Of a DNA stretch of 64,000 nucleotides, positions 1 through 3,000 are shown one piece after another (the first letter of the stretch is position 1; every line of letters begins with the position of its first letter). The stretch is from Escherichia coli O157:H7 (GTDB taxonomy: Bacteria > Pseudomonadota > Gammaproteobacteria > Enterobacterales > Enterobacteriaceae). The position numbers were made by a program. Location of the stretch: the NCBI RefSeq assembly GCF_013167455.1, contig NZ_CP038328.1. One strand, written 5' to 3'.

Positions 1-3000
1 CCTTGCCCGTCGGGCATGGTAGCGGGAATACCGTCCACATACAGGCGAATACCGCGAATTCCGTAAGTGGAGCGGGAGCCAAATCCACGAATCGACAGCT
101 GTAAATCTTGCGCATAGTTCTGCCGGTTTTGTACCTGCAAACCAGGCACGCCGGTCAGTGATTCGGACAAGTTAATGCGCGGTGTTGCCAGGCGCATCTC
201 CTCGCCATCCACCACGCTTACTGCTGCAGGGGTATCCAGTTCTGAAACCACCTGCGGCGCGGCACTGACAATCATGGTCTGTTCATCAGCGGCAAAAACA
301 ACGGGGGAAAGGACAAGCAGGGCGGGCAAAACGGTCTGTCGAACGAAAACAATCTTCATGAAAAAAGCCAGGTTAAGAATGGGAAAACACCGTCATGGTA
401 ATGAAATTGTAAATTTATGGAAAACGAAACGGCACGATACGTTAATTAATTGAGAGAATTGTAGTCGTAACGGCAAGAAATGCTCCACATTTGAGTAAAT
501 AATGATTACCATTCCCATTTATAACAAGAGCGTAACGATGATTACGCTTAGCGAAGCATTGTGAAGCAGCAAAAATATCGGTTCATCAAAGGGAGTCGTC
601 ATGCATTTACGTCATCTGTTTTCATTGCGCCTGCGTGGTTCATTACTGTTAGGTTCATTGCTTGTTGCTTCATCATTCAGTACGCAGGCCGCAGAAGAAA
701 TGCTGCGTAAAGCGGTAGGTAAAGGTGCCTACGAAATGGCTTATAGCCAGCAAGAAAACGCGCTGTGGCTCGCCACTTCGCAAAGCCGCAAACTGGATAA
801 AGGCGGCGTGGTTTATCGTCTTGATCCGGTCACTCTGGAAGTGACGCAGGCGATCCATAACGATCTCAAGCCGTTTGGTGCCACCATCAATAACACGACT
901 CAGACGTTGTGGTTTGGTAACACCGTAAACAGCGCGGTCACGGCGATAGATGCCAAAACTGGCGAGGTGAAAGGCCGTCTGGTGCTGGATGATCGTAAGC
1001 GCACGGAAGAGGTGCGCCCGCTGCAACCGCGTGAGCTGGTAGCTGATGATGCCACGAACACCGTTTACATCAGTGGTATTGGTAAAGATAGCGTGATTTG
1101 GGTCGTTGATGGCGAGAATATCAAACTGAAAACCGCCATCCAGAACACCGGTAAAATGAGTACCGGTCTGGCACTGGATAGCAAAGGCAAACGTCTTTAC
1201 ACCACTAACGCTGACGGCGAATTGATTACCATCGACACCGCCGACAATAAAATCCTCAGCCGTAAAAAGCTGCTGGATGACGGCAAAGAGCACTTCTTTA
1301 TCAACATCAGCCTTGATACCGCCAGGCAGCGTGCATTTATCACCGATTCTAAAGCGGCAGAAGTGTTAGTGGTCGATACCCGTAATGGCAATATTCTGGC
1401 GAAGGTTGCGGCACCGGAATCACTGGCTGTGCTGTTTAACCCAGCGCGTAATGAAGCCTACGTAACGCATCGTCAGGCAGGTAAAGTCAGTGTGATTGAC
1501 GCGAAAAGCTATAAAGTGGTGAAAACGTTCGATACGCCGACTCATCCGAACAGCCTGGCGCTGTCTGCCGATGGCAAAACGCTGTATGTCAGTGTGAAAC
1601 AAAAATCCACTAAACAGCAGGAAGCTACCCAGCCAGACGATGTGATTCGTATTGCGCTGTAATAGATATGGCGAGGGTGATAACGGAGAGACTTGCCTGA
1701 CTTTGATCACGCCGCATGCGGCACACCTTCGTCAGTAATCTAAATTTGCCCGGCACGTAGCCGGGCAATTTTGCAATTAGCTCGCCGTTTCAGGCTTAAA
1801 CACAATTTCCTGTTTTTCTTCATCTTCCTCGACGACTGGCGCAGTGCTGTGAATTTCAGCAACGCGTTTGCGCACACCAAACCAGCCTATAACCAGCAGA
1901 ATACCGATAATCGGCAGCGCCGCGATAGTATAAGTCCCGTTCGGGTAATCGAACGCCATCAGCACAAGGACACTCAGTAAAAACAGTAATGTCAGCCAGG
2001 AAGTGAAGGGCGCGCCAGGCAGTTTAAAACTGACATCCGCTGCTTTGCCTTCTTTAATCGCTTTACGCAGGCGCATCTGGCACACGATGATAAACGCCCA
2101 TGAAGCGATGATTCCCAGCGACGCGAAGTTCAACACAATCTCAAATACGCGCGACGGCACCAGATAGTTGAGGAATACGCCGACGACATACACAACCAGT
2201 GTCGCCAGAATCCCGGCATACGGCACATGCTGACGACTCATTTTCGCCATAAAACTCGGTGCGGAACCGCCCATCGCCATTGAGCGCAGAATACGTCCGG
2301 TGCAGTACAGACCTGAATTCAGGCTGGAGAGGGCAGCGGTCAGCACCACAATGTTCATAATGCTGCCGATATATGGCACACCCAGTTTAGAGAAAAACGT
2401 CACGAACGGACTTTGCCCCGCCTGATACGCGCTCCACGGCAATAACATAACCAGCAACACCACGGAGCCGACGTAAAACAGGCCAATACGCCAAATCACA
2501 CTGTTAATCGCTTTAGGCACCATGGTCTGCGGATCTTTACATTCTCCGGCAGCTGTACCCACCATTTCAATGGAGGCAAAAGCAAACACTACGCCCTGAA
2601 TCAACACCAGCGCAGGCAGCAAACCGTGGGGGAAGAAGCCGCCATTATCGGTGATTAAATGAAAGCCAGTGGTGTTGCCATCCAGCGGCTGACCACTACC
2701 GAGGAACACCGTACCCACGACCAAAAAGGTCACAATGGCGAGCACTTTAATAAGCGCAAACCAGAACTCCATCTCCGCAAACCATTTCACACCGATCATA
2801 TTCATGGTGCCAACGATGGTAAGTGCAGCGAGCGCAAAGACCCACTGCGGCACGCCGCCAAACGCACCCCAGTAATGCATATACAGAGCGACGGCGGTAA
2901 TATCAACAATCCCCGTCATCGCCCAGTTGATGAAGTACATCCAGCCAGCAACATAAGCGGCTTTCTCACCCAAAAACTCACGGGCATAAGAGACAAAACT

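Follow-up and report, generated by a model that had tools for sequence, protein, structure and literature searches.

Organization of the pqqU–yncE locus

The DNA analysed here, referred to as the window, is a 64,000-nucleotide stretch of Escherichia coli O157:H7 (contig NZ_CP038328.1), and its first 1.7 kb hold two divergent genes separated by a short AT-rich region.

1–359, minus strand: 5' part of pqqU (formerly yncD), TonB-dependent PQQ receptor; start codon at 359–357, the window opening inside the gene
360–600: gap separating the divergent genes pqqU and yncE, 241 bp, 37% G+C
588–595, plus strand: Shine-Dalgarno region of yncE, AAAGGGAG, near-invariant in two cross-genus alignments
601–1662, plus strand: yncE, ATG at 601, encoding a Sec-exported seven-bladed beta-propeller protein

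The call of pqqU follows the RefSeq annotation on a 100% identical O157:H7 record, and the Pfam Plug domain was detected in its product (E = 2.9e-12). The gene formerly called yncD has been renamed in the literature, its product being an importer of the cofactor PQQ and not of iron. YncE belongs to the Pfam YNCE family and matches PDB 3VGZ, an entry of identical length, with E = 2.8e-225. The intergenic region was free of indels among the five E. coli strains compared, and it is the same DNA in MG1655 and W3110.

A Fur box between pqqU and yncE

A preliminary description of this DNA had noted a Fur-box-like string in the gap between the two genes, which it gave as 240 bp. The string was confirmed, as the 18-mer aaataatgattaccattc lies at 497–514 within the gap, and a mismatch scan resolved it into the following site.

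498–516, no strand assigned: Fur box, 19-mer AATAATGATTACCATTCCC, identified by its agreement with the consensus, matrix score, shuffles, conservation and mapped ChIP peaks

Fifteen of the 19 positions agree with the Fur consensus GATAATGATTATCATTATC, and a pattern search for the consensus with at most three mismatches gave no match in the window. Only two sites of the 15/19 grade occur in the 64 kb, namely 498–516 and 62145–62163, the latter at the start of yddA. In dinucleotide shuffles, such sites arose at 0.17 per window, and the probability of at least one falling in the gap was 0.0024.

We then scored the window with a palindromic Fur matrix built from ten classical Fur promoters of K-12, none of them in the window, for which the leave-one-out scores of the true sites ranged from 9.2 to 19.9 bits; a non-palindromic, one-site-per-sequence matrix from the ten sites was overfitted and was discarded in favor of this model. 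The scan, which the preliminary description had proposed as a check, ranked 498–516 first among about 64,000 positions with 19.4 bits, followed by the yddA site with 19.3 bits, while the third-ranked site reached 12.7 bits. Shuffles of the gap attained 19.4 bits at P = 0.00035, and no other site in the gap exceeded 9 bits in the matrix scan. Because the sites of yncE, yddA and adhP (upstream, 11.3 bits) were all scored, the three published Fur targets of strain Sakai within the window were recovered, three of three.

Considering that the gap is AT-rich and that a predicted -10 hexamer falls within the match, the site could be suspected of being a chance likeness in promoter DNA with no role in iron control. 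Chance is ruled out by the results of both shuffles, and the top rank of the site, its retention in every orthologous locus examined, its coincidence with ChIP peaks and the derepression of yncE in fur mutants, all described below, likewise refute this reading, to which we attach practically no probability.

The Fur box is conserved with yncE

To the left of yncE, the Fur box was kept in 78 of 78 orthologous loci, one per Enterobacteriaceae species examined and from about 20 genera. The orthologous boxes scored between 16.7 and 22.6 bits, and their distance to the yncE ATG was 97–107 bp in 75 of the 78 loci. In an alignment of 24 genera, TAATGATT, ATTC and CA of the box were invariant. The box does not co-occur with both genes across evolution: nine Citrobacter loci that lack pqqU within 3 kb upstream still carry it at 18.5–20.5 bits, and it also persists beside a pqqU remnant in E. 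albertii and beside a frameshifted pqqU in Trabulsiella and CFT073.

Published Fur binding and response of yncE

Published peak coordinates were mapped onto the window. The ChIP-exo Fur peaks of MG1655, W3110, 042 and CFT073 fall 94 to 79 bp before the yncE ATG, corresponding to 507–522, where the placement for MG1655 assumes the coordinates of an older record, and they were seen under iron-replete conditions only. The ChIP-seq Fur peak of CFT073 is centered at -99, corresponding to position 502. The Sakai ChIP-exo peak was left out of the exact mapping, its published coordinates following an older version of the record.

In published data on fur mutants of eight strains, O157 Sakai among them, yncE rose with log2 fold changes of 3.1–8.1; the CFT073 mutant showed a 147-fold increase, and YncE protein was overproduced in a fur mutant as judged by western blot. 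Both the Fur-1 and Fur-2 iModulons include yncE. Earlier publications already place a Fur box upstream of yncE and credit it to McHugh 2003. The site is reportedly missing from RegulonDB, and the published work searched contained no footprint or site-directed mutation of the box. Fur control of yncE is already known; it was first published in 2003, and several genome-wide ChIP studies confirm it.

Predicted yncE promoter and operator arrangement

The position of the box relative to the yncE promoter was examined through the hexamers conserved around it.

484–489, plus strand: predicted -35 hexamer of yncE, TCCACA, inside the conserved block CTCCACATT (483–491)
507–512, plus strand: predicted -10 hexamer of yncE, TACCAT, inside the Fur box; TACTAT or TATTAT in other genera

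No plus-strand promoter was returned at the threshold of the promoter scan, and the E. coli hexamers agree with the consensus at only 8 of 12 positions. Among 79 sequences the -35 hexamer was TCCACA in 43 and TCCACT in 26, with a fixed spacing of 17 bp to the -10 hexamer. The latter was TACTAT in 60, TACCAT in nine and TATTAT in nine, a conservation that is inseparable from that of the Fur box in which it lies. An alternative -10 hexamer, TATAAC (520–525), was less conserved and was dropped. We infer the promoter TCCACA-17-TACCAT, and with it a transcription start, from this arrangement, which would put the -10 hexamer within the box.

Taken together with the published binding and expression data, 498–516 very probably serves Fur, in its iron-loaded state, as the operator for repression of the yncE promoter. 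In the mechanism we propose, the 19-bp box would extend over both the spacer and the -10 hexamer predicted for a sigma-70 promoter whose predicted -35 hexamer lies just upstream. Fur dimers on the box would shut out RNA polymerase, and iron limitation would free the box of Fur and turn yncE on.

A conserved stem-loop and a candidate RyhB site in the yncE leader

Between the box and the yncE ATG, the leader holds two conserved elements.

528–549, plus strand: stem-loop conserved in the 5' leader of yncE, with 530–535 paired to 542–547 as the core stem and the loop CGAUGA at 536–541
551–570, plus strand: conserved leader block GCGAAGCAUUGUGAAGCAGC, candidate RyhB pairing site, complementary to RyhB nucleotides 41–59

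The stem-loop was obtained with RNAfold and RNAalifold on 71 sequences. In the stem, 94.8% of the cells were paired and six of six pairs covaried; none of 500 shuffles matched the observed value, and slid controls were 31–50% paired. A search of 300–760 against Rfam gave no credible family. The promoter-scan output had offered a terminator-like minus-strand reading of this hairpin, which we rejected because the covarying stem has many G-U pairs when read on the plus strand and is located in the yncE leader.

RyhB, a small RNA repressed by Fur, has been published as an activator of yncE. Using the RyhB sequence of K-12, we found the best local duplex of the RyhB core with the leader at 551–570, a block kept across genera in our alignments, with an ordinary energy that 12.5% of random tiles equalled. 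The duplex of full-length RyhB with the full-length leader gave meaningless long-range structure, not above random tiles, and was replaced by this local scan. If the pairing takes place as proposed, the stem-loop and the RyhB-complementary block would form a second, post-transcriptional layer of control, and repression by Fur together with activation by the Fur-repressed RyhB would make a coherent feed-forward loop.

pqqU is not consistently controlled by Fur

The preliminary description had proposed coordinated iron-responsive control of both divergent genes, to be compared with the published Fur regulon. For yncE this part stands, as the ChIP peaks and the derepression in fur mutants attest, whereas pqqU is mostly unresponsive. 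It was outside the Fur regulon in seven of nine strains, O157 Sakai included, and published work reports that it responds to neither Fur nor iron limitation; in the MG1655 fur mutant its log2 fold change was 0.12 and not significant. Derepression in fur mutants was published for W3110 and 042 only, with log2 fold changes of 2.95 (p = 2.7e-51) and 2.02, respectively. In published data, the two genes accordingly do not respond together to Fur or iron, with W3110 and 042 as partial exceptions. The idea of coordinated control is weak on four counts: pqqU imports PQQ, does not respond in MG1655, responds modestly in only two strains, and can be lost or broken while the box remains beside yncE.

The region nearer to pqqU appears to carry its own control elements.

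395–447, no strand assigned: conserved blocks on the pqqU side, a probable pqqU regulatory region apart from the Fur operator, including a marbox-like site at 429–447

These blocks and the Fur box are 50 to 100 bp apart. They were kept where pqqU is present and had diverged in two aligned Citrobacter loci without pqqU. The marbox-like site has one mismatch to the marbox pattern and is not significant alone; published Reg-Seq data give no support for MarA action at yncE. A candidate pqqU promoter picked by eye, TTTCCA-17-TACCAT (423 to 395), would set the Fur box at about -110 to -128. A promoter-like candidate on the minus strand from the promoter scan, TTCACA-16-AATCAT (565 to 538), would set the box downstream of the start.

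It seems unlikely to us that one Fur operator represses both yncE and pqqU with a joint iron response, in the manner of fepA–fes or fepB–entC. The derepression in W3110 and 042, where the ChIP-exo peak was assigned to both genes, speaks for it; TTCACA-16-AATCAT would drive a pqqU-directed transcript through the box, and overlapping 5' UTRs of yncD and yncE have been suggested in a review. Moreover, pqqU in wild-type MG1655 already stands at about 32, equal to the derepressed level in W3110, and yncE is partly on there (about 300 versus 18). As the intergenic DNA of the two strains is the same and the MG1655 wild type is already at the derepressed pqqU level, the negative result in MG1655 could reflect culture conditions. 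On the other hand, the box outlives the loss of pqqU and is the only Fur site found in the gap, the conserved pqqU-side blocks lie well away from it, and pqqU changes about 4- to 8-fold, much less than yncE, which changes up to about 280-fold. Both the lack of response in most strains and the nature of the substrate, PQQ instead of iron, argue in the same direction, and pqqU of P. aeruginosa has likewise been published as iron-unresponsive.

Alternatively, the Fur response of pqqU may be indirect, arising from the strong divergent transcription of derepressed yncE or from the physiology of fur mutants, a reading that we infer as possible without favoring it. The shift of pqqU is small and differs between strains or data sets, the sole Fur site in the gap sits where it would serve yncE, and the same samples show yncE up by two orders of magnitude.

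Judged by comparison of the orthologous loci, the Fur operator belongs to yncE, and an effect on pqqU, if any, would be secondary. It is a doubtful but specific proposal that Fur at the yncE operator damps pqqU too when cells are fully iron-replete, either via a transcript from the right of the box or via promoter coupling. If this were true, iron limitation would lift PQQ scavenging a few-fold alongside YncE, pqqU and yncE would be a functional pair coupling the PQQ-dependent oxidation of sugars in the periplasm to iron status, and the negative results in MG1655 would stem from control cultures that were partly iron-limited.

Comparison with known Fur-controlled promoters

The promoters of fhuA, cirA, fiu, fecI, tonB and exbB have a single consensus-type 19-bp Fur box near the core promoter, as yncE has near its predicted core promoter, and the score of the yncE box is within the range of the training sites from classical Fur promoters (14.8–21.7 bits). 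As at those promoters, the yncE box is occupied when iron is replete and loss of fur strongly derepresses the gene; the locus differs in that no role in iron uptake is known for YncE and in that the right arm of the box is unusual, reading ATTCCC and not ATTATC. Transcription of cirA is repressed by Fur and its mRNA is activated by RyhB, as for yncE, although the pairing site proposed here at 551–570 is drawn from complementarity and conservation only. The yddA–yddB–pqqL box, yddA being a published Fur target, shares 16 of 19 bases with the yncE box on the minus strand (GCTAATGATAACCATTCCC); it overlaps the annotated yddA start codon, whereas the yncE box lies about 100 bp upstream of its ATG.

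In layout, the locus resembles fepA–fes, fepD–entS and fepB–entC, where a Fur box lies between head-to-head genes 110–370 bp apart. In the enterobactin cluster the operons on both sides are established Fur targets, whereas only yncE responds consistently at pqqU–yncE, where the gap holds one strong site and the box survives the loss of pqqU.

Significance

As a finding, the Fur box matters little, because Fur control of yncE was already documented. The analysis corrects a gene label, in that yncD is the PQQ importer pqqU and not an iron receptor, and the comparative evidence assigns the operator to yncE. It also places a candidate post-transcriptional half of the iron switch in the yncE leader, where the covarying stem-loop and the RyhB-complementary block could guide the study of how RyhB activates yncE. 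YncE itself is a candidate vaccine antigen in E. coli and a carrier-diagnostic antigen in Salmonella Typhi.

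Fur box in the pqqU–yncE intergenic region

Several E. coli O157:H7 chromosomes match window bases 1-1,700 with 100% identity, and among complete E. coli genomes, 5,411 of 5,426 have the pqqU/yncE region. In the RefSeq annotation of an identical record, minus-strand pqqU ("TonB-dependent receptor PqqU", formerly yncD) diverges from plus-strand yncE, after which come ansP and yncG. A TonB-receptor Plug domain was recognised in the translation of the pqqU 5' end. YncE is assigned to the Pfam YNCE beta-propeller family and has a match of solved structure, 3VGZ.

Features of the pqqU–yncE region in window coordinates (gene positions from the RefSeq annotation of the identical record)
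359..357, minus strand: start codon of pqqU
360-600: pqqU–yncE gap, 241 bp, 37% G+C
484-489: predicted yncE -35 element, TCCACA, at conserved spacing
498-516: Fur box
507-512: predicted yncE -10 element, TACCAT, at conserved spacing
530-547 (extendable to 528-549), plus strand: leader stem-loop GCGUAA-CGAUGA-UUACGC, from predicted fold and covariation
551-570, plus strand: RyhB-complementary block GCGAAGCAUUGUGAAGCAGC, the best local duplex with RyhB nt 41-59
601-1662, plus strand: yncE

The preliminary description had placed a Fur-box-like site between yncD and yncE, and had named a Fur matrix scan and a comparison with published Fur regulon data as checks. The 18-mer that it quoted was located at 497-514. 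The natural 19-mer, AATAATGATTACCATTCCC at 498-516, has 15 of 19 positions in common with the Fur consensus, which is near-palindromic, and only one other match in the 64 kb is equally good (62145-62163, overlapping the annotated yddA start codon). Dinucleotide-preserving shuffles gave 0.17 sites as good per window and P = 0.0024 for one in the gap. So as not to depend on the consensus, we also trained our own matrix. This palindromic position weight matrix was obtained by expectation-maximisation from ten classical K-12 Fur-controlled promoter regions, all outside the window (fepA/fes, fepD/entS, fepB/entC, fhuA, fecI, fecA, cirA, fiu, tonB/yciI and exbB). The box scored 19.4 bits and ranked first in the window, followed by the yddA site at 19.3 and a third match at 12.7, while the training sites themselves scored 14.8-21.7 bits, or 9.2-19.9 bits in leave-one-out scoring. 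In shuffled versions of the gap, 19.4 bits was reached with P = 0.00035, and no further position of the gap exceeded 9 bits in the matrix scan. Both scans confirm the site. Two bases 5' of the 19-mer, window position 496 is T in O157 and A in K-12, 042 and CFT073; 497-600, including the box, is otherwise invariant among five E. coli strains, save one CFT073 difference at 529.

For O157 Sakai, published ChIP-exo data place three Fur targets in the window (yncE, adhP and yddA-yddB-pqqL), all of which were recovered by the matrix. The ninth-ranked match (36694-36712, 11.3 bits) is located 41-59 bp upstream of adhP, between adhP and maeA, and fits the published adhP target. The yddA site reads GCTAATGATAACCATTCCC on the minus strand and has 16 of 19 bases in common with the yncE box; as it overlaps the annotated ATG (62159), the yddA start codon is either covered by the operator or wrongly annotated.

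Published Fur binding and yncE expression

Fur ChIP-exo peaks reported by Gao et al. 2023 (PMC10164565) lie at -93 to -81 from the yncE ATG in W3110, at -91 to -79 in 042 and at -94 to -82 in CFT073, and the MG1655 peak lies at -93 to -81 if it was numbered on the older K-12 record, as the "intergenic" label of that paper requires. Mapped to the window, the offsets of the four strains correspond to 507-522, and the yncE peaks were marked as iron-replete only. The Sakai peak is labelled "yncE, intergenic", with coordinates from an older record version. In CFT073, ChIP-seq by Banerjee et al. 2020 (PMC7157518) gave a peak of height 845 centred at -99 from the yncE ATG, which corresponds to window 502, and yncE was up 147-fold in the fur mutant. 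The log2 fold changes of yncE in fur mutants of eight strains were 3.10, 8.14, 5.30, 5.51, 5.22, 4.20, 3.65 (Sakai) and 5.07. Furthermore, a fur mutant was shown to overproduce YncE protein (PMC5120174), Fur is bound upstream of yncE in K-12 (PMC4676285), and yncE is a member of both Fur iModulons. The published regulon data thus agree with the matrix scan, with ChIP peaks on the box and yncE derepressed in all eight strains. A Fur box upstream of yncE is already known; the literature attributes it to 2003 work, and according to one source the site is not in RegulonDB. The neighbouring ansP (1777-3276) was down (log2FC -1.39, p = 4.6e-7) in published MG1655 fur-mutant data and unchanged in W3110.

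The box is linked to yncE

When YncE was searched against a one-genome-per-species collection, 80 loci from about 20 Enterobacteriaceae genera were obtained, 78 of which had enough upstream sequence to seek the best Fur-matrix match within 400 bp before yncE. This match was the orthologous box in 78/78 loci (16.7-22.6 bits), 97-107 bp before the yncE ATG in 75 of them and at -58 or -62 in the other three, where a leader stretch of ~45 nt is deleted, as seen in both aligned ones. In a 24-genus alignment, TAATGATT, ATTC and CA were invariant although mean column identity was only 59%, and the block CTCCACATT directly upstream of the box was nearly invariant.

We then searched K-12 PqqU against the 78 loci and found pqqU divergently adjacent to yncE in most. 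No pqqU was present within 3 kb upstream of yncE in nine Citrobacter loci (L021, L022, L024, L025, L028, L031, L032, L036 and L090; L-numbers denote orthologous yncE loci in other genomes). It is only a remnant in E. albertii (L017), split by frameshifts in Trabulsiella (L058) and annotated as frameshifted in CFT073 (L006); loss or inactivation of pqqU beside an intact yncE has thus occurred repeatedly. In L021, its space is taken by an unrelated 470-aa minus-strand ORF (742-2154). In all loci with pqqU absent, remnant or frameshifted, the box is intact at the usual place with 16.7-20.5 bits, and two aligned Citrobacter loci without pqqU have lost the pqqU-side blocks (E. coli 395-447) and kept all yncE-side blocks. 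Therefore, the operator travels with yncE.

Response of pqqU to Fur

Coordinated iron-responsive control of both genes had also been proposed. Any assumption that yncD encodes an iron receptor should be updated, as the published substrate is pyrroloquinoline quinone (PQQ): Hantke and Friz showed that YncD imports PQQ, renamed it PqqU and saw no PQQ phenotype on yncE deletion, and a later structural study confirmed high-affinity import. According to Grinter and Lithgow as well as Hantke and Friz, Fur does not regulate pqqU and iron limitation does not induce it; P. aeruginosa pqqU is insensitive to iron too. In the supplement of Gao et al. (PMC10164565), pqqU did not change significantly in MG1655 (log2FC 0.12) and was up 8-fold in W3110 (2.95, p = 2.7e-51) and 4-fold in 042 (2.02); the peak was assigned to both genes in these last two strains. 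Because the intergenic DNA is identical in MG1655 and W3110, the local sequence is not the source of this difference. In wild-type MG1655, pqqU was already at ~30, the derepressed level of W3110, and yncE at ~300 versus 18 in W3110, which suggests that the MG1655 control cultures were partly iron-limited. Considering these levels and the rise in W3110 and 042, Fur may have a small effect on pqqU, direct or indirect. Such an effect is inconsistent among strains, one to two orders of magnitude below that on yncE and absent in Sakai, and it is not required to explain the box. The proposed Fur control is therefore supported for yncE, by ChIP peaks and derepression, and largely unsupported for pqqU, which is unchanged in MG1655, unresponsive in Sakai and dispensable for retention of the box. 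The box thus differs from the shared bidirectional Fur operators of the fepA-fes type.

Several other elements were noted on the pqqU side. The MG1655 ChIP-exo table contains a second, intragenic yncD peak, at window 214-250 inside pqqU if older record coordinates apply, and no Fur-matrix site above 4 bits occurs there. A minus-strand sigma-70-like promoter (TTCACA-16-AATCAT, 538-565, 9/12 to consensus) would direct a transcript across the Fur box towards pqqU, antisense to yncE; its conservation is uninformative because it overlaps leader elements that are conserved also where pqqU is absent. A marbox-like sequence, ACGGCACGATACGTTAATT at 429-447 (plus strand), has one mismatch to AYNGCACNNWNNRYYAAAY, which we take to be the marbox consensus. 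The surrounding block is conserved in loci that have pqqU and has diverged in the aligned loci that do not, and the match is not significant alone (2 in the window versus 1.3 expected). A weak MarA site is reportedly assigned to yncE in RegulonDB, for which Reg-Seq gave no confirmation.

Predicted yncE promoter and repression

From the sequence, 484-489 and 507-512 are predicted to be the yncE -35 and -10 elements. Their spacing is 17 bp everywhere, and among 79 sequences the -35 was TCCACA in 43 and TCCACT in 26, and the -10 was TACTAT in 60, TACCAT in nine and TATTAT in nine. Read as the -10, 507-512 falls inside the Fur box. The E. coli hexamers agree with consensus at 8 of 12 positions, and the promoter scan made no call there. 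An alternative -10 at 520-525 was rejected, being much less conserved than 507-512. Transcription presumably starts near 519. The best-supported account is that Fur represses yncE in the classical manner, presumably by occluding its promoter. The site, its statistics, conservation and linkage to yncE, together with ChIP overlap and derepression in fur mutants from mapped published data, are as expected for an E. coli Fur operator, the promoter overlap being predicted, and we consider the box very probably the Fur operator of yncE.

The yncE leader and RyhB

In the stem-loop at 530-547, all six core pairs covary among 71 distinct Enterobacteriaceae sequences. Paired cells amounted to 94.8%, against 31-50% in slid controls, and 88 cells were changed on both sides versus 28.5 in shuffles, with 0/500 shuffles reaching the observed value. 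Since G-U pairs are frequent on the plus strand, the stem-loop is a structure formed by the yncE mRNA. It matches no Rfam family, and it could protect the mRNA 5' end or be an Hfq/RyhB-related element.

Just downstream, the conserved block at 551-570 is where the best local duplex with RyhB is predicted, as scanned with the single-stranded RyhB core (nt 41-59) taken from the K-12 genome. The duplex energy is unexceptional, with 12.5% of random tiles as good, and the block is a candidate RyhB activation site on grounds of conservation and published evidence. RyhB activates a translational fusion of yncE (PMC4666370), and RIL-seq called yncE a major RyhB partner (PMC8896160); sequence-based RyhB target prediction missed it (PMC7154689). 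Fur is a repressor of ryhB as well as of yncE, and RyhB in turn an activator of yncE, so that a coherent feed-forward iron switch is encoded in the interval; dual Fur/RyhB control of yncE has already been raised by earlier authors. In Pseudescherichia vulneris and relatives (L041, L048 and L052), the leader has lost ~45 nt at about -60 to -20 from yncE, so that the stem-loop and the RyhB-complementary block are absent and the Fur box is kept; the deletion is directly seen in aligned L041 and L048. These loci offer a natural experiment on whether yncE can do without RyhB control.
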